This document shows positions 151-13,537 of a stretch of DNA of 30,065 nucleotides, one piece after another. The stretch is from the NCBI GenBank assembly GCA_007123195.1, contig SKLO01000508.1, positions 1 through 30,065 on the forward strand, written 5' to 3'. The translations under genes were made by a program, and so were the position numbers. The stretch comes from Verrucomicrobiales bacterium (lineage in GTDB: Bacteria; Verrucomicrobiota; Verrucomicrobiia; Verrucomicrobiales; SKLO01). The notes under the pieces are model-generated. The model was not told where the DNA came from, did not search any database, and saw nothing but the letters and a program-made list of their open reading frames with translations. How positions within the stretch are numbered: position 1 is the stretch's first letter; every line of letters begins with the position of its first letter.

Positions 151-1479
<1,329 letters not shown>

Positions 1480-1502: not shown

Positions 1503-3065
1503 TCACCGGCGCAAGCGCCGCGGCGGCGGTGTTTTTGGCGGCGTTCGTCCGGGCAGGACGGCGAAGTCATCGGCCCAATTGCACTGGGTTCGGAGTGGTT
1601 GACCGTTCACCAGCAAGCCCTCGATGTGGACTCCGGCCTCCTTCAGCGAGTGCCTGAGGTCCAGGTCGACGAAATCGATCAAGCCGTCGGTGAGAACCAG
1701 CGCGGCCCGGGGCCGGCGGGTCGCCGGCTGACGGGCCAGGTGCTGCAGCACGCAGTTGATGTCGGTGCCGCCGGTGCTGTCGGCGCCCTGTTCCACGAAC
1801 CGCTGGGAGCGCCATTCGGCCACGATGTTGGAGAACGCGAACAAGCGGATCCGCCCCCGGCGCAGCGGGCCGGCCAGCACCGATGTCAGGGCCGGCAGGT
1901 GGTTGCTGATCGAGGCGCTGGTGTCGAGGTAGACATGCACCTGCTTCACCGGGATCATCTCCGGAGCGGGCACCGCAACGGCCGACCACTGGTAGAGCGG
2001 CGTTTGGCCCAGCAGGTCAGCGAGGGCGTGGACCCGGCGGTCGCGGGCGGATGGGAGCACTGATTGCAACGGCAGGGGCCGGTCGAGGATTCGCTGTTGG
2101 CGGCCGTGACGGCTTTCGCCGGCCAGCAGCGCCCCGAGTTTTCGCAGGGCCTGCTCCAGCGGGTGGACCCACGGGTGGGCCGGACCGGGTCGGTCAGGCG
2201 GCACCCGCAGCAGCGAGGCGGTCTGGTTGTGCCCGGGCGGCGCGCTGTTTGAAGATTGGGACGAGTGTTCGGGTCGGACCAACCGGGCGCCGGGCAAATC
2301 TCCGAATCGCTGGCCGACCCATTGTTTGAACGGCTGGAGATGCCCTGTCGCCCGGGTGTTTGGCGGCGTTCCGGCCGGGCGCGGCTCCGGATCGCCGGGG
2401 CGGGTGTGCGCATCCGGGTGCGAGCCCAGCAGTATTACTCTGGCGCAGGCCGCCTCGCCGTCCTTGCCTTGTTGGCGGCAGATGCGGGTGAGCATCCGTC
2501 GCACCTCGCCGTAGGTGGCCTGGCAACCGGGCGTCGATCCTCCTTGGGCCGGGTCGTCATACAACAGTTTGAACAAGCCCTGCTGCTCCGGGCACAGCGA
2601 CTCGACCGCTGCCATGCTGTCCGGCCAACCCGGTGGCGGCCGCAGCAGGCGGTCGGGAAACCGGTCGAACGGGTAGTATCGCTGCAGCAGGCCGACGCCG
2701 GCGCGGCGGCCGACGGTATGGCTGAGCATGGCGTTGATGACGATGTCGAACACCAGGTTGTCGAGCGGGGTCGGCCACCCGGCCAGTCGCGTGTGACCTA
2801 GGGTCACGTGGTAAAGCTCGTGCGACACCAGCAGCAGCAGGTCGTTGTCGTTCGGGCAGTGTTTGGCGACGAAGTCCGGGTTGAAACGCAGCACCGGCGG
2901 GTCGGTGCAGGTGACGGCGGCGGTGGCGACCTTGGTGGTGACTTCGATGTCGGCGAGGTTCAGCAACTGGATCCATGCGTGAGGTTCGAGGTCGAGGCTG
3001 TTGAACATCCGCTCGCGCAGGTGCCGGGCGGCGGGGTCGGTGGGGCGGTTGAAGAGCACGTTCAT
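1503..3065 (-). CDS. HExxH metallopeptidase-like (DUF2201-like) domain plus C-terminal VWA domain protein
   Basis: HELYH followed by NLVFDIVIN. VWA MIDAS elements DTSAS, GGTD and LTDG. Start placed at ATG 3065, which overlaps the upstream stop (ATGA); the ORF track start at 3092 is an alternative. Confidence 0.8.
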   Translation of the reverse strand: MNVLFNRPTDPAARHLRERMFNSLDLEPHAWIQLLNLADIEVTTKVATAAVTCTDPPVLRFNPDFVAKHCPNDNDLLLLVSHELYHVTLGHTRLAGWPTPLDNLVFDIVINAMLSHTVGRRAGVGLLQRYYPFDRFPDRLLRPPPGWPDSMAAVESLCPEQQGLFKLLYDDPAQGGSTPGCQATYGEVRRMLTRICRQQGKDGEAACARVILLGSHPDAHTRPGDPEPRPAGTPPNTRATGHLQPFKQWVGQRFGDLPGARLVRPEHSSQSSNSAPPGHNQTASLLRVPPDRPGPAHPWVHPLEQALRKLGALLAGESRHGRQQRILDRPLPLQSVLPSARDRRVHALADLLGQTPLYQWSAVAVPAPEMIPVKQVHVYLDTSASISNHLPALTSVLAGPLRRGRIRLFAFSNIVAEWRSQRFVEQGADSTGGTDINCVLQHLARQPATRRPRAALVLTDGLIDFVDLDLRHSLKEAGVHIEGLLVNGQPLRTQCNWADDFAVLPGRTPPKTPPPRRLRR

Positions 3066-3685
3066 GGAATCAGGCTGTTGATCAGCGGGCATTCGAACAG
3101 GCAGTGCCTGAGGTTGAGCAGGTGGGAGAGCCGCAGGTCCGGTGGGCGGTCAACGATGATCAGGTGACCGATGCGATGGGCCGCGAGCCACCCCACCATG
3201 GACAGGTCGCGCGCCCAGCGCACCGGCGCTTGCCGGCGGGGCTGCCGATGGAACGGCAACCAGCGCGGCACCGGCTCGCGTGTGCGGGCGATCAGGAAGC
3301 GCAGCCCCGGCAGCGGAGGGCGGAGCGGGCCGGTGGCCTGCAACAATGCCTCCACCGTTTCGTGGTGGTCGCGGACGTGCTCGACGACCTGCAGCCAATC
3401 GGAACTGTTGGGGTGGCAATCCGTGGTCGCGAGGGCCCTGCCGGCGACCAGGGCCAGCGGCGGCGGCAGCTCCGCGACGGCCGGCTTGCCCGCCAGCAGC
3501 AGCGCTCTGACAAGACAGCAACCCAGCAGGATGCCGTCCTCGGCTTCGGGGTCCAGGTGGTCGGAGTCATCGGGTGCCATCGATTGGTCAGGCTCCACCG
3601 GCTGGCGGCGGCGGCGGGCGCGTGCCGGCGCGACCAGCGGCGGGCAATCGTCGATGCATGCGGTGGGGTTGAGCAGGGCGGTCAT
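3062..3685 (-). CDS. Hypothetical protein (~207 aa) between the AAA+ ATPase and VWA genes
   Basis: 3' part of ORF 3062..4048. Codons are mostly G/C-ending and its TGA overlaps the VWA ATG. ATG 3709 is an alternative start. No recognisable motif. Confidence 0.6.
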   Translation of the reverse strand: MTALLNPTACIDDCPPLVAPARARRRRQPVEPDQSMAPDDSDHLDPEAEDGILLGCCLVRALLLAGKPAVAELPPPLALVAGRALATTDCHPNSSDWLQVVEHVRDHHETVEALLQATGPLRPPLPGLRFLIARTREPVPRWLPFHRQPRRQAPVRWARDLSMVGWLAAHRIGHLIIVDRPPDLRLSHLLNLRHCLFECPLINSLIP

Positions 3686-3864
3686 GATAGGAAGCGGGCG
3701 GTCGGGCATGGGGCGTGGATGGACGGTGGGCAGGGGTTGGATCTGTTTCGGGGTTTTGGTTTGGATCTGGTTATGGTTTTGCGCTTTGGGTTCGGGCGGG
3801 ATTCGGGTTTGAGCCCGGGTTGCAACGGGGGGAGGGGACGCAGCGGAGAGCTTGCCGGGTTCAC
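3682..3864 (-). CDS. Possible 60-aa basic, Pro-rich small ORF bridging the ATPase and the hypothetical gene
   Basis: GTG at 3864 overlaps the ATPase TGA (GTGA) and its own TGA overlaps ATG 3685 (ATGA). Codon usage is atypical (many A-ending codons), so it may be non-coding. Confidence 0.3.
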   Translation of the reverse strand: MNPASSPLRPLPPLQPGLKPESRPNPKRKTITRSKPKPRNRSNPCPPSIHAPCPTARFLS

Positions 3865-5471
3865 GGTTCGGCGGCCTGCATGGCGCCGTCTTGGTCCAGC
3901 CGGAAGCGCTGCCACAATTCCGAGAAATGGTTGGCAAGGCTTTCGGGGTTGATGTGGTGGTAGCCGTCCGGCAGCAGCGCCAGCAGCAGGCGCCGGAGCG
4001 CCTCGTCGCGCACGGTCGAACCGAGCGGCTGGACCAGTTGCCTGACACTGCGGACGCTGGAGAGGTTGAGCGTCCACAGCCGGTGGCGGGACTGGCTTGG
4101 GCTGGAGTCGCGGACCCGCTGCAGGCAGTCCGCCAGGGTCTCGATCGCGCACGCCGAGATCGGGCGCCCCTGGCGCAGGGCGATGTCGATCACCACCGCA
4201 AGGGCGGTGCGGCGGGCGAGGTTGGCGATGCTGGCAAGCGCGTCGGTGACCAGCGAACCAAGCTCGTCCGGCTGCAGCCTGAGGCGTTCGACCACCGCGC
4301 AGCAGAGCCGATCGACCGGGTGGTTCAGGTGCACCAGCTGCCGCCAGGGCGAATCGGCCGGCAGCGTGGCCAGGGTCCAGGCGTTGCGGTGAACGGCCCA
4401 CAGGGCGTGGGTCTCGACGTGGTCGGTGGCATGGGTCGGCAGGCAATGGGTCAATGTCAGGCGCATCACCTCGTCCCAGTCCGGCGGCCGTTCGTCTCCG
4501 GGGCGCAGGCACTCCAGCGCGGCGCGGATGCCGAGCGCGGAGCGCTGCATGATGGCAAGACGCCTGGCGGACAGGCGGATGTGCTGGGCGCGCAGCAGCG
4601 ACTCAACCGTCAGCAGGTAGTCGGTGACGGGTCCCGGGTTGTGGTCGGCCAAATCGTGGAAGCGTCGCCGGGCGTCCCGGACCAGATCCGCCAGTCCCCG
4701 GCTTGGCGGCGATTCCGAGAACCGGGAGTCGAGCAGGTGCCGGGCGTCCTTCGGGTCCAGGTCGGCCCAGTCGGGCACACTGATCAGGAACGCGAACCGG
4801 TCGGCCAGGGCGGGATCGAGCGGCTGGCAGCCTTGGTAGTGGTCCAACGGAGCGTCGTTGTCATCGTCGGACGGAGGATTCATCGCCGCCCAGCGGTAGC
4901 GCAGCTTCGGCAGATCGATGCCCTGCACCCGGCGCTCGTGAATGATCGGGAACAACTTGTTCTGCAGGTCGATCCTGGTGCGGTTCAGTTCGTCGATGAA
5001 CACCACCTCGGCGCCCCAGATGGAGCCGGGGGTCGGCAGGTAGTGCAGAGCGGAGCGGGCCGCGTTGGGCATGGGGATGCCGATGAGGTCGTCGTAATTG
5101 ATGAGGGAGGCGTTGTAGAAGCGCGGTTCGAGGCCCAGCGCCCGGGCCAGCCGCTCGAGCACCATGCTCTTGGCGGTTCCGTGGGGGCCGATCAGCAGGA
5201 TCGGGTCGGCGGTGGCCAGGGCGGCGAGCAGGACCGGCTCGAGATGGCTCCACCCGACCAGCCCGACCGCCGCGGCAGGACCGGGGACGGCGGAGGCGGG
5301 CGCCGGGCCGGGAGCGGGCTCGGGATTGTCGGGGGAGCCATCGCGGGCGGGCGATCGGGAGGGTCTGGACGGGCCGGATCGGGGCGGGCGGGTGCCGGGG
5401 CTCGGGGCTGCGGGGGTTTTGGCGGGGCGAGTGGCGACAGTGGACGGCGGGGTGGTGGTGGTGCTCTTCAT
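3861..5471 (-). CDS. MoxR/RavA-like AAA+ ATPase
   Basis: Walker A GPHGTAKS (RavA-style AKS), Walker B VFIDELNR, LQNKLF, sensor-1 AAMNP, arginine finger LDPALADRF. Long Pro-rich N-terminal extension and helical C-terminal extension. Confidence 0.88.
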   Translation of the reverse strand: MKSTTTTPPSTVATRPAKTPAAPSPGTRPPRSGPSRPSRSPARDGSPDNPEPAPGPAPASAVPGPAAAVGLVGWSHLEPVLLAALATADPILLIGPHGTAKSMVLERLARALGLEPRFYNASLINYDDLIGIPMPNAARSALHYLPTPGSIWGAEVVFIDELNRTRIDLQNKLFPIIHERRVQGIDLPKLRYRWAAMNPPSDDDNDAPLDHYQGCQPLDPALADRFAFLISVPDWADLDPKDARHLLDSRFSESPPSRGLADLVRDARRRFHDLADHNPGPVTDYLLTVESLLRAQHIRLSARRLAIMQRSALGIRAALECLRPGDERPPDWDEVMRLTLTHCLPTHATDHVETHALWAVHRNAWTLATLPADSPWRQLVHLNHPVDRLCCAVVERLRLQPDELGSLVTDALASIANLARRTALAVVIDIALRQGRPISACAIETLADCLQRVRDSSPSQSRHRLWTLNLSSVRSVRQLVQPLGSTVRDEALRRLLLALLPDGYHHINPESLANHFSELWQRFRLDQDGAMQAAEP

Positions 5472-5512
5472 GATGGGTGCGGCAGGGTCAGGGGCGCACC
5501 AGGAGCACGAGA

Positions 5513-5545
5513 AACGCCGTCCGGAAGGAGCATCAGGACGGCGTT
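5513..5545. repeat. Perfect 10-bp inverted repeat upstream of the ATPase gene
   Basis: AACGCCGTCC (5513-5522) and GGACGGCGTT (5536-5545) with a 13-nt spacer. Confidence 0.6.
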
Positions 5546-5684
5546 CGATTCGTTGGAGTATGTTGGGTTGTTCGGAAGTCTAGGGGTTCCGCACATCGGA
5601 CCGGCGGACCGGTCCTGGCACCTTGGCGACTCCATCGCCAGGTTGCCGGCCCCATTGCTGGGGCGCTCTTGATGCTATGGAATC

Positions 5685-5712
5685 AATCTACCATGAATCG
5701 AGTGGAATGCAA
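5685..5712 (-). promoter_or_regulatory. Putative sigma70-type promoter for the ATPase operon
   Basis: Minus strand reads TTGCAT-N16-TAGATT with an extended -10 TG and an AT-rich tract upstream, in an otherwise GC-rich region. Confidence 0.45.
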
Positions 5713-5726
5713 GTGGTAAATTGAAT

Positions 5727-5740
5727 TTTCTTGAAAGAAA
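5727..5740. promoter_or_regulatory. AT-rich dyad, candidate operator
   Basis: TTTCTT-GA-AAGAAA, located 14 bp upstream of the predicted minus-strand -35 box. Confidence 0.3.
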
Positions 5741-6208
5741 CGGCCGAGCGGGTGTTGTGGTAGGAAATAGTGGTGAGGGCAAGTCCGCGGCGGAGGAGTT
5801 CCGGACGCGACCGCCGCCCTGCGGCCGGGCGCTGGCGGGGGCGGCGGTCTGGCGTGCCGTGCCTGGCCCTCTGCGCGGGGTTGACATCGACCGGCGATCC
5901 GGTCGGTCCCGGCAGGCAACTGGCGCGGTGCGCGTGCCCCGCGGCGACATCCGGAACCTCGTCCGCGGGGCTTCATGCCGCGTTCCATGCCTTCCTTGTG
6001 CGATGCCTCACCGGCCTGTGGTCCGGCTGTGCGGCGCCTTGCCTGCGTGGTGAGGGACGGGAGCGGGCTCCCCGGCAATCCCCCGGCGGGAATATGCGAA
6101 TAGTCTCACAAATTGGTTGACGGGTTGATCGGTGACTTGTTAGAAGCCCTTGACGGGGATGAGTGGATCCCTGATCAGGCTGAGCCATGAAACCAATCAC
6201 CCCAGCTC

Positions 6209-7957
6209 TTGCAAGACATGAAAACCATCGCATCCAACACTCAAGCCGCTGATCCCCCGCCGCCGTCAATCTGCAGGCAGCGCCTTTTTCCCGGCAGAAT
6301 GGCATTGGCCGTCGCGGTCTTCGCGTTTTTGGCCGGCCAGGCCGTGGTCATGGGGCAACCTCCCGGGCGCGGAGGGCCGCCTGGATGGGAGCGCGTGCTG
6401 GTGCTGTTCGAGGCCGAGCCGGGACCGGCAGAGCGCGCCATGGTGAAAGGTTTCGGGGGCAGCATCGAGCGCGAGTTCCAGATCGTGCCCGCGGTGGCGG
6501 CGTCGCTGCCGCCGGGTGCCTCGAACGAGCTGCGGCGATCGCCACTGGTGCGTGTCGTTGAGCCGGACATCGAGGTCACCGGGACCGACATCGACAACAC
6601 CTGGGGGGTCAAGCGGATCGGGGCCGGCCCGGTTCACGACGGCACCTTTGGCCAGGATGCCCAACCGGTGTTGGGTACGGGTGTCAGGGTGGCGGTGCTG
6701 GACACGGGGATCGATTACAATCACCCCGAGCTGGCCGATTTTTTTGCCGGCGGCCACGATTTCGTCAATGGTGACAACGACCCGCTGGACGATCACGGCC
6801 ACGGCACCCATGTGTCGGGAACCGTGGCCGCTCTGCGGGACGGGAACGGCGTCGTCGGGGTCGCGCCCGAGGTCGACATCTTCGCGGTCAAGGTGCTGGA
6901 TTCCAACAACACCGGAGTGCTGAGCGACGTTCTAGCCGGCCTTGACTGGTGCCTTCAAAACGACATCGCGGTGGCCAATTTCAGCCTGGGAACCACCACA
7001 TTTCCAGGCATCACGGTTTGGAACGCCTTCGCCAACGCCGAACAGGCGGGTCTGGTGATGGTGGCGGCGGCCGGCAATGAAGGCGTGGGGACCGACACGG
7101 TCTGGTATCCGGCCAGGTTTGAAAGTGTGATCGCGGTGGCGGCGACCACGTCGTCGGACGGGCGCGCCGGCTTCTCAAGTACCGGTCCGGCGGTGGAACT
7201 GGCCGCCCCTGGAGAGGGGATCAACTCGACTACCCCCGGCGGCGGCTATGGCCTGGCCAGCGGCACGTCGATGGCGGCCCCCCACGTGACCGGGGTGGCG
7301 GCTCTGGTGATTGCGGCAGGAATCACCGACGCCAACGACAACGGACGCATCAACGACGAGGTCAGGATGGTGCTGCAAGTGACCGCCGAGGACCTCGGAC
7401 CTGAGGGCCGGGACGAGCACTTTGGTTATGGTTTGGTGGATGCCCAAATGGCCGTGCTTCTGGCATACGCCCCGGGGAACGGCACCGATCCTGATCCTGA
7501 TCCTGACCCTGATCCTGATCCTGAGCCGGACCCTGAGCCGGACCCTGAGCCGAGCTTCGATGCCCCCGAGGACCTGGAGGGTTCCGTGACGGGCAACACG
7601 GTGACCCTGCAGTGGGTGGACCGGTCCGATGTTGAAGACGGGTTTGAGATTGAGCTGGGGTTGGAAACCGGTGGCGTGATCACCTGGACCGGTTGGGCGA
7701 CCGTGCCCGCCGGCACCACCAGTTACAGCGACACGCTGGCCGATGGCAGCTACTGGTTCCGCGTTCGAGCCTTCCGTCTGTCGCCGGCCGAGGTCACCGA
7801 TTGGTCGAATGAGATCGAGCTGACGGTGGGCGCGTCCGCCGATGATCCGCCGCCTGGAGGTGGTCCGCCTCCGTGGGTGCCGCCTGGAGGTGGTCCGCCA
7901 TCGTGGGTGCCGCCCCAGGGACCTCCTCCGGTCGGCGTGCATGCTGCCGACCAGTGA
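6209..7957 (+). CDS. Secreted S8 subtilisin-like serine protease with propeptide, DP/EP linker, FN3-like domain and Pro/Gly-rich tail
   Basis: Catalytic motifs VLDTG, HGTHVSG and GTSMAAPHV, oxyanion AAGN, a hydrophobic signal segment, and an FN3-like segment (VTLQW...YWFRVRAF). The true start may be ATG 6299. Confidence 0.93.
   Translation: MQDMKTIASNTQAADPPPPSICRQRLFPGRMALAVAVFAFLAGQAVVMGQPPGRGGPPGWERVLVLFEAEPGPAERAMVKGFGGSIEREFQIVPAVAASLPPGASNELRRSPLVRVVEPDIEVTGTDIDNTWGVKRIGAGPVHDGTFGQDAQPVLGTGVRVAVLDTGIDYNHPELADFFAGGHDFVNGDNDPLDDHGHGTHVSGTVAALRDGNGVVGVAPEVDIFAVKVLDSNNTGVLSDVLAGLDWCLQNDIAVANFSLGTTTFPGITVWNAFANAEQAGLVMVAAAGNEGVGTDTVWYPARFESVIAVAATTSSDGRAGFSSTGPAVELAAPGEGINSTTPGGGYGLASGTSMAAPHVTGVAALVIAAGITDANDNGRINDEVRMVLQVTAEDLGPEGRDEHFGYGLVDAQMAVLLAYAPGNGTDPDPDPDPDPDPEPDPEPDPEPSFDAPEDLEGSVTGNTVTLQWVDRSDVEDGFEIELGLETGGVITWTGWATVPAGTTSYSDTLADGSYWFRVRAFRLSPAEVTDWSNEIELTVGASADDPPPGGGPPPWVPPGGGPPSWVPPQGPPPVGVHAADQ
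7487..7552 (+). repeat. Hexamer tandem repeat encoding a (DP)/(EP) linker
   Basis: Eleven 6-mers (GATCCT, GACCCT, GAGCCG) encoding DPDPDPDPDPDPEPDPEPDPEP. Confidence 0.9.
7850..7933 (+). repeat. 30-nt coding tandem repeat (PPGGGPP[P/S]WV twice plus a partial copy)
   Basis: Units at 7850-7879 and 7880-7909, with a degenerate unit at 7910-7933. Confidence 0.85.
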
Positions 7958-8585: not shown

Positions 8586-10106
8586 ATGACCGCCCACCTC
8601 CAATCCAATCTCCCGGCGCTGCCGATCAGCGATGCCAATGCCGACTTCATCGGTCGCGCCCGCCACCACCTCATCGGCGGTCAGTGGGTGCCCTCGGCCA
8701 GTGGCGCCACCTTTGCCACCTTCGATCCCGCCACCGGCGACGTGCTGACCCACTGCGCCCAGGGCGAGGCCGAAGACATCGACCGCGCGGTCAAGGCCGC
8801 CCGCAAGGCGTTCGAATCCGGCCCGTGGAAAGCCCTGACAGCGTCCGAGCGGGGCCGCATCATCTGGAAGATCGGCGACCTGATGCTCGAACACGCCGAC
8901 GAATTGGCCGAATTGGAGGCACTGGACAACGGCAAGCCCAGGGCCGTCGCCCGCGCCGTCGACATCCCGTTGTCGGCCGACGCCTTCCACTACATGGCCG
9001 GCTGGGCCACCAAGATCACCGGCCAAACCATGCCCGTGTCCGTGCCCTATGCGCCGGGTGCCAGGTTTCACGCCTATTCCCTCAAGGAACCGGTCGGGGT
9101 GGTGGGGCAAATTATCCCGTGGAACTTCCCCCTGCTGATGGCGGCGTGGAAACTGGGCCCCGCCCTCGCCGCCGGCTGCACCCTGGTGCTGAAGCCGGCC
9201 GAGCAAACCCCGCTGACCGCGTTGCGCCTCGGCGAACTCATGATCGAGGCTGGCGTGCCCGACGGGGTGGTCAACATCGTTACCGGTGACGGCGAAAGCG
9301 CAGGCGCGCCCCTGGCCGCCCACCCCGATGTCGACAAGGTCGCCTTCACCGGCTCCAACGAAGTGGGCAAGCTGATTCTTCGGGCCGCGGCCGGCAATTT
9401 GAAGAAAGTCAGTCTAGAACTGGGAGGCAAGTCTCCCAACGTCATCTTCAAGGACGCGCCCGACCTGCCGGCCGCCATCGCCGGGGCTGCCAACGCCGTG
9501 TTTTTCAATCACGGCCAGTGCTGCGTCGCCGGCACCCGGTTGTTCGTCGAGCAGGATGTCTTCGACCAGGTTGTCGAGGGGGTGGTGGAGACGGCGGCCG
9601 GCATCAAGCTGGGTCCCGGCCTCGACGACGCCACCGAGATGGGGCCGCTGGTGTCCCAGGAACAACTTGAGCGCGTCACCGGCTACCTCGCCTCCGGGCG
9701 CGAGGACGGCGCCGACCTCCTCGTCGGCGGCGGGAGGCAGGGCGACCGTGGTTACTTCGTGCAGCCGACCGTCATCACCGGCACCCGTCCAGAGATGAAA
9801 GTCGTGCGCGAGGAGATTTTCGGCCCGGTGCTGGTGGCGGAACCGTTCACCGACGAGGCCGACCTGGTGCGCCGCGCCAACGACACCACCTACGGCCTTG
9901 CCGCCGCGGTCTGGACCAATGACGTCAGCCGTGCCCACCGCGTGGCCGCCGCCTACCGCGCCGGCACCGTATGGGTCAACTGCTACAATGTCTTCGATGC
10001 CGCCCTGCCGTTCGGCGGTTACAAGCAATCGGGCTGGGGCCGCGAGATGAGTGGTGAAGCGCTCGACCTGTATACCGAAACAAAAGCGGTGGTTGTGGGG
10101 TTGTGA
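8586..10106 (+). CDS. NAD(P)-dependent aldehyde dehydrogenase
   Basis: IIPWNFP, LKPAEQTP, FTGS, catalytic Glu in LELGGKSP, catalytic Cys in GQCCVAG, EEIFGPV and PFGGYKQSG. Confidence 0.95.
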   Translation: MTAHLQSNLPALPISDANADFIGRARHHLIGGQWVPSASGATFATFDPATGDVLTHCAQGEAEDIDRAVKAARKAFESGPWKALTASERGRIIWKIGDLMLEHADELAELEALDNGKPRAVARAVDIPLSADAFHYMAGWATKITGQTMPVSVPYAPGARFHAYSLKEPVGVVGQIIPWNFPLLMAAWKLGPALAAGCTLVLKPAEQTPLTALRLGELMIEAGVPDGVVNIVTGDGESAGAPLAAHPDVDKVAFTGSNEVGKLILRAAAGNLKKVSLELGGKSPNVIFKDAPDLPAAIAGAANAVFFNHGQCCVAGTRLFVEQDVFDQVVEGVVETAAGIKLGPGLDDATEMGPLVSQEQLERVTGYLASGREDGADLLVGGGRQGDRGYFVQPTVITGTRPEMKVVREEIFGPVLVAEPFTDEADLVRRANDTTYGLAAAVWTNDVSRAHRVAAAYRAGTVWVNCYNVFDAALPFGGYKQSGWGREMSGEALDLYTETKAVVVGL

Positions 10107-13100
10107 ACTGCTTCCAATGCCAGGCCGACAACCCCGTCGGAGCCAGGTTCTGCAGCCAATGCGGAAGTGAACTCAGGCGGCGTTGCGGCAACTGCCAGAC
10201 CGAGACCGGTCCGGGAGCGAAATTTTGCCACGAATGCGGCACGCTGTTGGACCGTCGCGCGCCAGAGAAGTCGCCGGGATCAGTCGCCGAAGTCCTCCCG
10301 TCCACCGCCGACGCCGACGCCATCCAGGCAGGAGCAGCCTCCGGCCCGGCCGCGTCCGAGGCCGCCATGCCGGAGCTTCGTCAGCTGACGGTGGTTTTCA
10401 GCGATGTGGTGTCCTTCACCCAGCTGTCGCAACGCATGGATCCCGAGGACTTCAATGCGGTCATGCACGACTACTACAACGTCTGCAAGGCGGTGTGCAA
10501 AAGCTACGAGGGCAGCGTGGCCAACTACCTCGGTGACGGCGTGCTCATGTTCTTCGGTTATCCCACTGCCCATGAGGACGACGCCGTGCGCGCGGTGCGC
10601 ACCGGTTTGGCCATCGTCGAGGGCGTGTCGGCGCTCAACCGGCGCGACTACCACACCGGTGGCATCAAGCTGCAGGTGCGCGTCGGCGTGCACACCGGCC
10701 CGATGATTGTCGGCGACGACCGCGGCGGCAACTGGCAGCAGATGGCCCTCGGTGAGACCCTCAACATCGCCGCCCGCGTGCAGGCGGTGGCGCAGTCGGA
10801 CACCGTGGTCACCAGCTCCGCGACCTACAAGCTCATCGAGGGTTTTTTCGCCTGCCGCAACCTCGGCATCCACTCCCTCAAGGGAGTTGAGCAGCCGATC
10901 GAAGTCTTCGGGGTGTCTCACGAAACCACCGCGCGCAGCCGGCTTGAGGCAGTCGGGCCCGGCGGGCTCACCCCGCTCACCGGTCGTGACGGCGAGGTCC
11001 GCCGCCTGCTTGAGTGTTGGCAACAGAACTACCAGGGGCGGGGCTGCGTCGTGCTTCTCAGTGGCGAGGCCGGCATCGGAAAGTCCAGGCTGGTCCAGCA
11101 CCTGAAGGAACATGTCGCCAACGTGCCCGGCGCCTGGCTGACGCCCTGCCAATGCTCATCTCATCACAAGAATACCGCGTTTCACCACTACGCCGACCTG
11201 CTTGAACGGGTTGTCCTGACGTTTGATCGCGGGGAAAGCTCCGCCGACCGGTTGGAGAAGCTTGAGGGTGTGTTGCACCAGTATGGCAGCGAGATCAATG
11301 TCACCCTTCCATCCCTCGCCGCCTTGCTGTCGATCCCGCCCGAGGCCGGCTACGTCCCGGTCGAGGACCCGCTCCGGCAGAAGCGCGCGATCATTGACAG
11401 CTACAAGCACATCCTCACGGTGCGATCAAGCAGGCAGCCGTTGCTGCTGGTGGTCGAGGACATCCACTGGGCCGACCCGTCGTCGCTCGAACTGCTGGAC
11501 GAGGTGGTGGCCATGGTCGCCGGGCACCGCGTCATGGCCCTGTTCACCTGCCGCCCCGAGTTTGAGTCGCGCTGGTCCGACCTGCCACATGTCAGGCACA
11601 TCGAGGTGAACCGGCTGGACCCGCAGCAGGTGCGGGTGATCTGCCGGCAGGTCGCGCGCGGCGCGCCGATCCCCGACAAACTGGTCGACCAGATCGTCAG
11701 CCGCACCGACGGGGTGCCGTTGTTCGTCGAGGAACTGACCAAGATGGTGATCGAGTCCGGCATGGCAAGCGCGCCGGTCGGCGGCCATCCCCCGGGCGGG
11801 ACACCTGCCGCGTTGTCGATCCCGACCACGCTGCAGGACTCGCTCATGGCCCGCCTCGACTGCCTGCACAAGGCCAAGGAGATCGCCCAGGTCGGTGCGG
11901 TGATCGGCCGCCGGTTCACCTTCGACCTCATGCGCAAGGTTTACCCGCTGGAGCAAAGCCTGCTGCGGCGCAGCCTCGACCAGTTGGTGGATTCCGAGCT
12001 GTTGTTTCAGTCCGGCGATGGACCGGACACAGCCTACGCCTTCAAGCACGCGCTGGTCCAGGAAGCCGCCTACCAGTCGCTGGTGAAGTCGCGCCGCCGC
12101 CATCATCATCGCGTCATCGCCCGGGCGCTTGAAGAGCACTTCCCCCACAATGCCGCGGCCGACATGGAGGTGCTGGCGCATCACTACACCGAGGCAGCGT
12201 TGCCATGGCAGGCGGTGCCCTACCTGCTGAAGGCGGGCGCCGCCGCCGCCAACCGCTCGGCCCACGCCGAGGCGATTTCGTTTCTCAGCCGTGCCATCGG
12301 CCTGCTGTCCAGGCTGCCGGACGATAACCGGCGCCGGGAGCACGAGATCGAGGCCCTGATCGCGCTCGGTGCCGCGCTGGCGGCTGCCAAGGGCTACGGC
12401 GACCACGATGTTGAGCGCACCTACACCCGCGCCCGCGACCTGAGCGAGCAGGGCGGCACTCCGGGTCAGTTGTTCCAGTCGCGCTATGGCTTGTGGCGGC
12501 TGCACATGCTGCGGGCCAACTACGACACCGCCACCCGTCAGGGCGAGGAGCTGCTGGAGCTGGCCACGCGCCAGGAGAACCGGTCGTTCCTCATCGCTGC
12601 CCATCGCGCGCTTGGCGCCACCCTGTTCTACCGGGGCCGCTTCCATCAGTCCCACAAACACGTCAACAGCGTCATCGCGGTCACCACCACCGGCCACGAC
12701 CAGGACGGCGACACGCTGGTGCGGGACATCTACGATGTGGTCGATCCCCGTGTCACCTGCCGCTCCTACCTTTCGTGGCTTCACTGGATGCTTGGAAGGA
12801 TCGGCCTGGCGCGGGAGGAAAGCCGCCGCGCCATCACCCTGGCCGAACAGCTGCAGCACCCTTTTTCCATCGCCCTGGCGCTGAGCTTCGCCAGCTGGTT
12901 GGAACAGTTCTGCGGCGACACCGGGGCGGTCGGTGAGCTCGCCAGCAGGGCCGAGGCCCACTGCCGGCGGCACGGGTTCCCGTTCTGGATCGGCTGGAAC
13001 CAGGTCATGCTCGGATGGGTCGCCGGTCACGACCCGGAACGCAGCGATGAGGCGGTGTCGATGATCCGCGCGGGACTGGACCATTGGCGCGAGAACGGCT

Positions 13101-13537
13101 CCCATCTCGGCCGCGGCTACTTTCTTTGCTTGCTGGCGGATACCCATATGCGCCGCGGTGAATGGGACCTCGGTCATCACGCGCTGGAGCAAGCCGAAGC
13201 CTTCTCCGGTGAAACCGATGAATGCTACTGGGAAGCCGAGCGACTGCGGCTGCAGGGCGAGCTGTTGCTGGGGCAGGGGGGGGCTCCTGAGGCCGTCGAG
13301 AGATTGTTCCGGCAGGCCATTGCCCGCTCGCGCGAACAGTCCGCCCGGCTGCTTGAACTGCGCGCCATCACCAGCCTGGCGCGGCTCGCCGGCAACGCCC
13401 GGTCCGGCTCCGGACAGGGGGCGGGTCCGACCGTCAGCGTCCGCGACGAGCTGGCCGCGGTGCTAGGGGGCTTTGAACACGAGCCGGAAACCGCCGACAT
13501 CCTGGACGCGCGCGAACTGCTCGCCGGGTGTGGTTGA
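10103..13537 (+). CDS. Double zinc ribbon / class III nucleotide cyclase / AAA ATPase / TPR-like multidomain protein
   Basis: Four CxxC pairs at the N-terminus, cyclase motifs FSDVVSFT, LGDG and NIAAR, Walker A GEAGIGKS, Walker B VVEDIHWAD and a long helical repeat C-terminus. GTG start overlaps the ALDH stop. Confidence 0.92.
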   Translation: MNCFQCQADNPVGARFCSQCGSELRRRCGNCQTETGPGAKFCHECGTLLDRRAPEKSPGSVAEVLPSTADADAIQAGAASGPAASEAAMPELRQLTVVFSDVVSFTQLSQRMDPEDFNAVMHDYYNVCKAVCKSYEGSVANYLGDGVLMFFGYPTAHEDDAVRAVRTGLAIVEGVSALNRRDYHTGGIKLQVRVGVHTGPMIVGDDRGGNWQQMALGETLNIAARVQAVAQSDTVVTSSATYKLIEGFFACRNLGIHSLKGVEQPIEVFGVSHETTARSRLEAVGPGGLTPLTGRDGEVRRLLECWQQNYQGRGCVVLLSGEAGIGKSRLVQHLKEHVANVPGAWLTPCQCSSHHKNTAFHHYADLLERVVLTFDRGESSADRLEKLEGVLHQYGSEINVTLPSLAALLSIPPEAGYVPVEDPLRQKRAIIDSYKHILTVRSSRQPLLLVVEDIHWADPSSLELLDEVVAMVAGHRVMALFTCRPEFESRWSDLPHVRHIEVNRLDPQQVRVICRQVARGAPIPDKLVDQIVSRTDGVPLFVEELTKMVIESGMASAPVGGHPPGGTPAALSIPTTLQDSLMARLDCLHKAKEIAQVGAVIGRRFTFDLMRKVYPLEQSLLRRSLDQLVDSELLFQSGDGPDTAYAFKHALVQEAAYQSLVKSRRRHHHRVIARALEEHFPHNAAADMEVLAHHYTEAALPWQAVPYLLKAGAAAANRSAHAEAISFLSRAIGLLSRLPDDNRRREHEIEALIALGAALAAAKGYGDHDVERTYTRARDLSEQGGTPGQLFQSRYGLWRLHMLRANYDTATRQGEELLELATRQENRSFLIAAHRALGATLFYRGRFHQSHKHVNSVIAVTTTGHDQDGDTLVRDIYDVVDPRVTCRSYLSWLHWMLGRIGLAREESRRAITLAEQLQHPFSIALALSFASWLEQFCGDTGAVGELASRAEAHCRRHGFPFWIGWNQVMLGWVAGHDPERSDEAVSMIRAGLDHWRENGSHLGRGYFLCLLADTHMRRGEWDLGHHALEQAEAFSGETDECYWEAERLRLQGELLLGQGGAPEAVERLFRQAIARSREQSARLLELRAITSLARLAGNARSGSGQGAGPTVSVRDELAAVLGGFEHEPETADILDARELLAGCG

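Follow-up and report, generated by a model that had tools for sequence, protein, structure and literature searches.

What does a MoxR-type ATPase do when it is encoded together with a small protein of no recognised family and a VWA protein carrying the HExxH motif of metallopeptidases? This question is raised by a locus at one end of a 30,065-nucleotide stretch of DNA (contig SKLO01000508.1 of the Verrucomicrobiales bacterium assembly GCA_007123195.1; G+C content about 68%), which is referred to as a whole as the window. An earlier note on this DNA had placed three such genes at positions 1503 to 5471, and all three are present and intact on the minus strand over this span (5471-1503), in the order MoxR-type ATPase, protein X, HExxH-zincin/VWA protein. 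A riboswitch for S-adenosylmethionine (SAM) upstream of the ATPase gene was absent from that account. Judged from its sequence, the locus is one transcription unit, with the ATPase, X and zincin-VWA genes lying behind a SAM-I/IV riboswitch and a terminator-like hairpin. The reading that is tentatively favoured overall is that of a MoxR/VWA remodeller which is induced by SAM starvation and serves SAM synthesis. The unit consists of the following features:

5557..5680, minus strand: SAM-I/IV riboswitch aptamer, Rfam RF01725 (47.5 bits)
5513..5545, minus strand: terminator-like hairpin, putative riboswitch expression platform (sequence reading; minimum free energy and centroid folds)
3861..5471, minus strand: MoxR-type AAA+ ATPase, 536 amino acids (Pfam AAA_5, bpMoxR; Walker A/B)
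3062..3709, minus strand: protein X, 215 amino acids from the ATG at 3709 or 207 amino acids from the ATG at 3685
1503..3065, minus strand: zincin-like HExxH plus VWA protein with a metal ion-dependent adhesion site (MIDAS), 520 amino acids, DUF2201-type (DUF2201_N match, motifs)

SAM riboswitches ahead of the operon

The riboswitch match runs from 5680 to 5557 on the coding strand, covers the full RF01725 model (positions 1-99 of 99) and exceeds the gathering threshold of 41.1 bits (E 1.6e-5 in 8.6 kb). RF01725, the SAM-I/IV family of Rfam, belongs to the SAM clan CL00012. The 3' end of the aptamer lies about 85 nucleotides before the ATG of the ATPase gene, and between the two a hairpin at 5545-5513 (AACGCCGTCC...GGACGGCGTT, then TTCTCGTG) is contained in both the minimum free energy and the centroid fold of 5690-5465 (z = -4.8). 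A simple promoter/terminator scan of 5400-6250 returned nothing and left this hairpin uncalled; it is considered a putative expression platform of the riboswitch. From family membership and the hairpin, the RNA at 5680-5557 is predicted to bind SAM and to repress the downstream genes. Known natural SAM riboswitches turn gene expression off upon SAM binding, and the unit should therefore be expressed at low SAM.

For a comparison with relatives, 80 homologous loci from many phyla (designated by L numbers, with L008 as the closest homologue of the window) were fetched and scanned with our own hidden Markov models (HMMs). Matches above the Rfam threshold precede the unit in L006, L008, L011 and L009. 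In L009, a cassette from Tepidiforma, there are two in tandem, a SAM-I/IV and a SAM-I aptamer at 3415-3517 and 3697-3788. A covariance model was built from five aptamers, the window's among them, each of which scores above the Rfam cut-off. This SAM-I/IV model has the window aptamer as its sole match in the whole assembly, and in the set of loci it has matches in 38 of 61, all of them on the coding strand and immediately ahead of the ATPase gene. In the alignment of these 38 aptamers, 94.1% of cells pair, compared with 34-41% for slid controls, and 30 of 34 base pairs show double (compensatory) changes, values that were reached by none of 500 shuffles; the alignment was fitted to our own model, so that these pairing figures are favoured. 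Among the loci that this model misses, the Rfam models at their thresholds detect SAM-I riboswitches in seven (L048, L049, L064, L065, L067, L090, L092), SAM-IV in L068, SAM-I/IV in L084 and L087, and SAM-II in L079. SAM-II is structurally unrelated to the other three classes. Taken together, a SAM riboswitch of one of four classes lies ahead of the unit in 49 of 61 loci, and riboswitches are reliable function pointers. Regulation of the operon by low SAM, the regulatory part of the favoured reading, is thus very likely. In L034, a second SAM-I/IV-like element (11860-11989, minus strand; 81 bits with our own model) lies on the opposite strand about 2.4 kb past the cassette, where it presumably serves another SAM-regulated gene.

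The conserved cassette and the loss of its fourth gene

Relatives of the zincin-VWA protein were retrieved by a word-index search (77) and by a pattern scan with one genome per species (513). They are found in Verrucomicrobiota, Planctomycetota, Lentisphaerota, Kiritimatiellota, Armatimonadota, Chloroflexota, Hydrogenedentota, Acidobacteriota, Pseudomonadota, Bacillota and Mycoplasmatota; in the window's own order, 2 of 40 genomes contain a relative, both of them distant. The ATPase gene is located upstream of the VWA gene in 61 of the 63 loci whose sequence extends far enough. In most loci an X gene was recognised, and the others have a gap of 245-840 nucleotides between the ATPase and VWA genes. 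The gene order of the window is the same as in L008, L009 and L011-L014. Since the same order recurs in 80 loci of many phyla, the arrangement is far beyond chance.

In about 75% of the loci (51 of 68), the VWA gene is followed by a gene for a divergent homolog of the SAM synthetase MetK. These MetK-like proteins keep the signatures GHPD, D-Q (DDQ), PDxK, GGPxGDxGLSGKK and GGGAxSGKDxxKxD, while their divergence concerns the central domain and the loop region; with TIGR01034 they score 147-172 bits (cut-off 309), compared with 552 bits for canonical MetK. To judge by these signatures, the paralogue looks catalytically intact. A canonical metK gene is encoded elsewhere in four of five carrier genomes examined. 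In L006, L019 and L021, the riboswitch is followed first by canonical metK and then directly by the ATPase gene; these metK genes (L006:1071-2683, L019:3452-4974, L021:3438-4987) belong to Opitutae-type loci, two of which have very divergent cassettes. The Tepidiforma assembly with L009 (1.6 Mb) contains the MetK-like gene only, and no canonical metK was found in it. A SAM riboswitch is kept in eight loci without the MetK-like gene (the window, L008, L030, L031, L033, L049, L064 and L065), and SAM control therefore belongs to the trio of ATPase, X and VWA protein itself.

The window is one of these reduced forms. A tree computed from 84 zincin-VWA proteins pairs the window with L008 on a long branch (0.81; then 0.43 and 0.54) inside a clade of 22 rows with 99% support in the Shimodaira-Hasegawa-like approximate likelihood ratio test. 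Because 19 of these rows have the MetK-like gene and rows of the outgroup have it too, the tree indicates that the gene was lost secondarily in the window's lineage, and the loss comprises an N-terminal motif of protein X as well.

Protein X has an in-frame ATG at 3709 that gives a product of 215 amino acids starting with MPDRPLPIM..., the same MPD... start as in L008. Pfam, NCBIfam and PADLOC gave no match for it, a word-index search of proteins returned only X itself, and in a pairwise profile comparison window-type X matched the other X proteins only marginally (hhalign E 0.013). Searching 1.84 billion representatives with a profile yielded 123 clusters with lengths of 85-269 amino acids. 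An HMM from which both the window's X and its close relative P0085, the representative of L008-type X, had been left out scores the window's X with 30.5 bits (E 3e-8), and the best of 2000 shuffles reaches 7.8 bits. The X family comprises proteins of about 140-225 amino acids that are always encoded between the ATPase and VWA genes. These results bear out the earlier view of the middle gene as a dedicated third component: it is conserved in homologous ATPase-VWA loci rather than absent from them. The survey of gene neighbourhoods proposed at the time thus found conservation of the middle gene among relatives, and the neighbours beyond the cassette turned out to be heterogeneous. In an AlphaFold2 model computed from 80 sequences (mean predicted local distance difference test score, pLDDT, 80.6; predicted template modelling score 0.70), X apparently adopts a new fold, a Foldseek comparison with the PDB giving no fold match (best E 3).

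Most X proteins have the N-terminal motif (L)LHNMSxPPRT (e.g. L014:1039-1560, among L011-L094), which was not found in the X of the window or of L008. In a search independent of reading frame, NMSxPPRT turned up in 48 of the 57 loci that have the MetK-like gene and in none of the 17 that lack it. The motif goes with the MetK-like gene in 4-6 of seven phylogenetically independent contrasts, and in none is the direction opposite. This covariation is suggestive, not conclusive, of X being an adaptor that touches the MetK-like enzyme with its N-terminus and serves the ATPase and the VWA protein with its conserved C-terminal domain. The reduced form likewise indicates the N-terminal motif as the likely contact with the MetK-like enzyme. 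An adenosylation of the motif's Met by the MetK-like enzyme was considered as well and is weakened by the presence of Ile or Ser at this position in some members. In a verrucomicrobial clade (P0006-P0017, P0083-P0092), X (MNLLHNMSAPPRT...) and the zincin-VWA protein (MNLLAHRPRTAEA...) start with similar peptides, which could be a shared recognition tag or a context effect of the start site.

The junctions between the genes set the window apart from its relatives. Two further features are located between ATPase and X:

3710..3860, minus strand: C/A-rich spacer between the ATPase and X genes, without counterpart in L008
3682..3864, minus strand: proline-rich open reading frame of 60 codons with a GTG start at 3864, from open reading frame calls

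The stop of X and the start of the zincin-VWA gene have ATGA in common, and this is the only true 4-nucleotide overlap between the three genes. At the other junction, for which an overlap of this kind had also been claimed, the distance is 151-175 nucleotides, depending on the start of X that is used, and there is no direct chaining. Here, the TGA of the ATPase gene (3863-3861) is overlapped by the GTG at 3864, which starts the 60-codon frame in a different frame (GTGA), and the TGA of the latter overlaps the ATG of X at 3685 (ATGA). The claim of chained overlaps thus holds for X and zincin-VWA and fails for ATPase and X, which are bridged by an unconserved reading frame. The 60-residue product has no family match in the Pfam scan, and its status as a conserved gene is rejected, as it is missing from L008, in which ATPase stop and X start overlap by 8 nucleotides and neither spacer nor bridging frame exists. 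The spacer is probably noncoding, either a lineage-specific insertion or a decayed tail of the ATPase gene, and the 60-codon frame is likely a by-product of its insertion. In six further loci, ATPase and X overlap by 4 nucleotides or lie 1-2 nucleotides apart. Since the two genes overlap or abut in relatives, operon-type coupling of ATPase and X is, as far as gene arrangement tells, the family rule, into which the window has inserted a spacer.

Several of these traits would be expected of a decaying remnant, i.e. a trio that has been drifting since the loss of the MetK-like gene and does nothing specific. Such a remnant would account for the long branch of the window and L008, the lost motif of X, the inserted spacer of 151-175 nucleotides and the Pfam scores of the window protein, which are weaker than those of other family members. 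However, window and L008 are 47-58% identical and all three reading frames are intact in both, Walker A and B, HExxH and every MIDAS residue are kept, and the riboswitch scores above the Rfam threshold in both loci. Intact frames, motifs and aptamers in both members of the pair indicate purifying selection, and decay is a quite improbable explanation. The reduced form is instead useful as a natural experiment in which the trio's function is set apart from that of the MetK paralogue.

Possible remodelling or proteolysis by the ATPase and the zincin-VWA protein

The ATPase consists of a proline-rich N-terminal tail, an AAA+ core at about residues 70-230 and a C-terminal region of about 300 residues without a family match. 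The Walker A motif GPHGTAKS (residues 95-102; 5189-5166) and the Walker B motif VVFIDELN (residues 156-163; 5006-4983) are kept in L008, whose ATPase is 58% identical over residues 57-531. In Pfam, AAA_5 is matched with 45.6 bits (cut-off 22; E 9.2e-12) and bpMoxR just above the cut-off (29.3 vs 27 bits), while AAA_3 stays below it (24.4 bits; cut-off 27) and the RavA model of NCBIfam reaches 16.8 bits only. The nearest solved sequences in a comparison with PDB sequences are midasin, RavA and MoxR 2r44. The protein is assigned by these similarities to the MoxR-class AAA+ group (AAA_5/MoxR/RavA/midasin).

In the zincin-VWA protein, the HExxH motif is part of HELYHVTLGHT (residues 82-92), and HELYH (82-86) is invariant in 31 sequences of the family. 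The MIDAS set comprises D381-x-S-x-S385, T431/T434 and T459-D460-G461. Residues invariant in the 31 sequences are H82, E83, H86, D381, S383, S385, T431, T434 and T459-D460-G461, and H91, N103, D107 and N111 are nearly so. The window protein matches DUF2201_N (PF13203) with 24.7 bits (cut-off 23.2) and PF09967 with 15.3 bits, under the cut-off of 26.4; among the 31 family members, VWA_CoxE is matched by 29 and DUF2201_N by 22. In the AlphaFold2 model (pLDDT 76), the VWA domain best matches NorD in the NorQD complexes solved by cryo-electron microscopy in 2026 (E 1e-5, probability 1.0) and also matches other VWA structures (probability 1.0). Over both domains the model aligns with phage 'metallopeptidase/VWA-like' proteins, with E values down to 1e-11. 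The pairing of a MoxR-type ATPase with an HExxH-bearing VWA partner, as the earlier note had it, is therefore confirmed by the AAA_5, bpMoxR and DUF2201_N matches and by the conserved gene pairing.

In MoxR/VWA pairs such as CbbQ-CbbO, NorQ-NorD and RavA-ViaA, the MIDAS face of the VWA protein grips one client and the ATPase ring remodels it. NorQ-NorD serves iron insertion into NO reductase, and CbbQ-CbbO is a Rubisco activase. For the present operon, a remodeller of enzymes of the SAM-synthetase type is favoured because expression is expected when SAM is scarce, known MoxR/VWA pairs remodel clients and the VWA domain is closest to NorD. Upon SAM starvation, the operon would be expressed, and a hexamer of the ATPase, docked via the VWA domain, would remodel or mature a client in SAM synthesis. 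The ancestral client may have been the cassette's MetK-like enzyme, gripped by the NMSxPPRT motif of X. In the reduced form found in the window, the client would be supplied in trans and would probably be the housekeeping MetK or another protein of the SAM cycle. The HExxH domain might add a processing or clearing cut. This client-remodeller mechanism, drawn by analogy, is conceivable and is put forward with reserve. Somewhat more doubtful is the wider notion that an ATP-driven MoxR/VWA-zincin machine and X, as its new-fold adaptor, form a hitherto unrecognised post-translational arm of SAM homeostasis under four riboswitch classes, in which they activate, repair or clear SAM-synthetase-type enzymes.

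The favoured reading competes mainly with that of a split regulated protease in the SAM regulon, similar to FtsH, with the MetK-like gene merely co-regulated. At low SAM, the MoxR ring would unfold SAM consumers, an inhibitor of MetK or X, which the VWA domain would capture and the HExxH domain degrade. An AAA+ protein plus a zincin is the logic of FtsH, and H82, E83 and H86 together with the nearly invariant H91, N103, D107 and N111 argue for a working metal site in the 31 sequences. Furthermore, the trio persists under riboswitch control after loss of the MetK-like gene in several lineages. Against this stands the structural proximity of the VWA domain to NorD/NorQ and the fact that the motif of X tracks the MetK-like gene, which suggests a physical link with that enzyme. 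In addition, MoxR-class ATPases with VWA partners are, to our knowledge, so far known as remodellers or insertases and not as unfoldases for proteases. On balance, a regulated protease is regarded as unlikely.

Several observations weigh against the SAM-related remodeller, beginning with the zincin domain itself, as the invariant HExxH, and with it a putative peptidase activity, is no less in keeping with a protease than with a chaperone. With the published Rfam models and their thresholds, a riboswitch is identified in only 15 of the 34 loci tested, and the other calls depend on our own covariance model. Of five matches made by this model alone, a re-test with Rfam placed two just below the cut-off, at unchanged coordinates (39.6 and 39.0 bits), and did not recover the other three. 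A Chloroflexota clade has neither the riboswitch nor the MetK-like gene. The covariation of the motif in X with the MetK-like gene comes from only seven contrasts (sign test, median p 0.06). As for the window itself, the branch of 0.81 that it shares with L008 makes a relaxed or changed function possible. The window has no MetK-like gene, and neither a bacterial- nor an archaeal-type metK was found in its assembly of 666 contigs, which is 83% complete.

SAM is the main methyl donor of the cell, and its known control in bacteria acts on the transcription and translation of genes for biosynthesis and transport. That four riboswitch classes, one of them structurally unrelated, converge on the ATPase/X/VWA operon is the reason for attaching importance to the remodeller reading. 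If this reading is true, the SAM regulon would include a kind of member not known before, an AAA+ remodeller that is gated by a riboswitch and has a peptidase-VWA adaptor and a rebuilt MetK paralogue. The large uncharacterised DUF2201/MoxR group would thereby gain its first physiological anchor, and a MoxR system a testable client. For the window, the reading would mean that the machine works under SAM control after its dedicated MetK paralogue was lost, so that it could act on the housekeeping enzyme or another target in the SAM cycle. The window adds to the cassette a three-gene form behind an above-threshold aptamer, the covariation of the X motif with the MetK-like gene, and the adjacency of restriction-modification genes in MetK-less variants, which is described below.

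Related systems, the defence question and neighbouring genes

The locus is a variant of the MoxR/VWA kind with SAM as its physiological anchor, and the two-gene pair of MoxR and metallopeptidase-vWA has already been published for jumbo phages. It resembles NorQ-NorD, CbbQ-CbbO, RavA-ViaA and CoxD-CoxE in that an AAA_5/MoxR-type ATPase is encoded beside a VWA partner with an intact MIDAS. As with Rubisco and CbbQO, a candidate client, the MetK-like enzyme, is encoded in the same operon in most relatives. The operon differs from these client-specific pairs in the zincin-like HExxH domain at the N-terminus of its VWA protein, in an obligatory third protein whose fold is apparently new, in the C-terminal extension of its ATPase (about 300 residues, without family match) and in its control by a SAM riboswitch; in the window, no client gene is encoded in cis. 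Compared with the four-gene cassette of SAM riboswitch, MoxR, X, zincin-VWA and MetK-like gene, the window has the same riboswitch class, families and order, but it lacks the MetK-like gene and the NMSxPPRT motif of X, possesses the spacer between ATPase and X, and has an oxidoreductase gene of the Gfo/Idh/MocA family downstream.

The pair of MoxR and metallopeptidase-vWA in group 2.2 jumbo phages was interpreted as a chaperone-cochaperone of virion assembly (Iyer et al. 2021, PMC7824862). Here as there, a metallopeptidase-VWA fusion adjoins a MoxR ATPase, and the window protein passes the DUF2201_N cut-off. However, sequence similarity to phage proteins was undetectable by tblastn among 50,697 phage records, and X, the MetK-like gene and the SAM-riboswitch control of the cellular family are unmentioned in PMC7824862. 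A phage origin of the operon is unsupported, with two weak matches in 2.9 million viral contigs (IMG/VR) and none in the 50,697 phage records (tblastn). The second published comparison is with the vWA-MoxR-VMAP systems (Kaur, Burroughs, Iyer and Aravind 2020, PMC7159879), from which the Pfam model bpMoxR was built. The window shares with them a weak, above-threshold bpMoxR match (29.3 vs 27 bits) and a layout of three components with MoxR and vWA, but its operon has no VMAP component, effector array or enrichment in a defence neighbourhood; the Pfam scan detected no effector domains in the window proteins beyond the HExxH domain. In that study, metallopeptidase domains occur only as rare effector fusions or as separate peptide-processing modules, and SAM synthetase is unmentioned. 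The operon is likewise unmentioned in the comparative study of the methionine regulon by Leyn 2014, and full-text literature searches found no description of a unit of riboswitch, MoxR, X, zincin-VWA and MetK-like gene. PADLOC and NCBIfam have no family for the three window proteins or for more typical members.

A role in defence had been suggested for the operon in the earlier note. Spelled out with the riboswitch, an anti-phage or conflict module would respond to phage SAM lyases, which deplete SAM and so de-repress the operon, with the outcome that SAM is restored for SAM-dependent restriction or BREX, or that the cell is killed through the peptidase. The patchy distribution, with relatives in 2 of 40 genomes of the same order and a tree that mixes phyla, fits horizontal transfer. 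Type IIG restriction-modification genes lie directly downstream of the unit in L033 and L035 and near it in L049, L089 and L082, the cassette of L014 is followed by BrxE/A/B, and L012 and L013 have AbiE genes as neighbours. On the other side, the three window proteins have no match in PADLOC, no defence family occurs more than twice among 124 heterogeneous flanking genes, and the window's neighbours are metabolic. Unlike the published ternary systems, the operon has neither a variable effector slot nor a VMAP-type third component. A location in a defence island is rejected on the Pfam and PADLOC tallies of the 124 flanking genes, which show no recurrent neighbour, and the Eco57I-type methylase was found in just 5 of about 90 loci. 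With no PADLOC match, few defence genes among heterogeneous neighbours and two weak viral matches, the defence reading is poorly supported, and the chance of an anti-phage module triggered by SAM depletion is slim.

The type IIG genes are of the Eco57I/MmeI type (L033:5684-8131, L035:3626-7129, L049:9443-13516, L089:5249-8758, L082:8946-10832). Where they follow the zincin-VWA gene, they do so in variants without the MetK-like gene that belong to two separate clades, Armatimonadota and Hydrogenedentota, and in L033 and L035 the two genes are only 17-32 nucleotides apart. A SAM-dependent enzyme is thereby placed at the usual position of the SAM-synthetase paralogue.

In the window, this position is occupied by a metabolic gene:

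151-1479, minus strand: Gfo/Idh/MocA oxidoreductase with twin-arginine translocation (Tat) signal, directly downstream of the zincin-VWA gene

This gene starts 23 nucleotides past the zincin-VWA stop on the same strand, so that co-transcription is possible; as a neighbour it is unconserved among the loci of relatives. Like it, the window's own neighbour genes are metabolic. Further away and unrelated to the operon, the plus strand at 8586-13537 contains an aldehyde dehydrogenase gene whose stop overlaps the start of a second gene, encoding a protein of 1144 amino acids with zinc-ribbon, adenylate/guanylate cyclase, AAA_16-NACHT and TPR domains.

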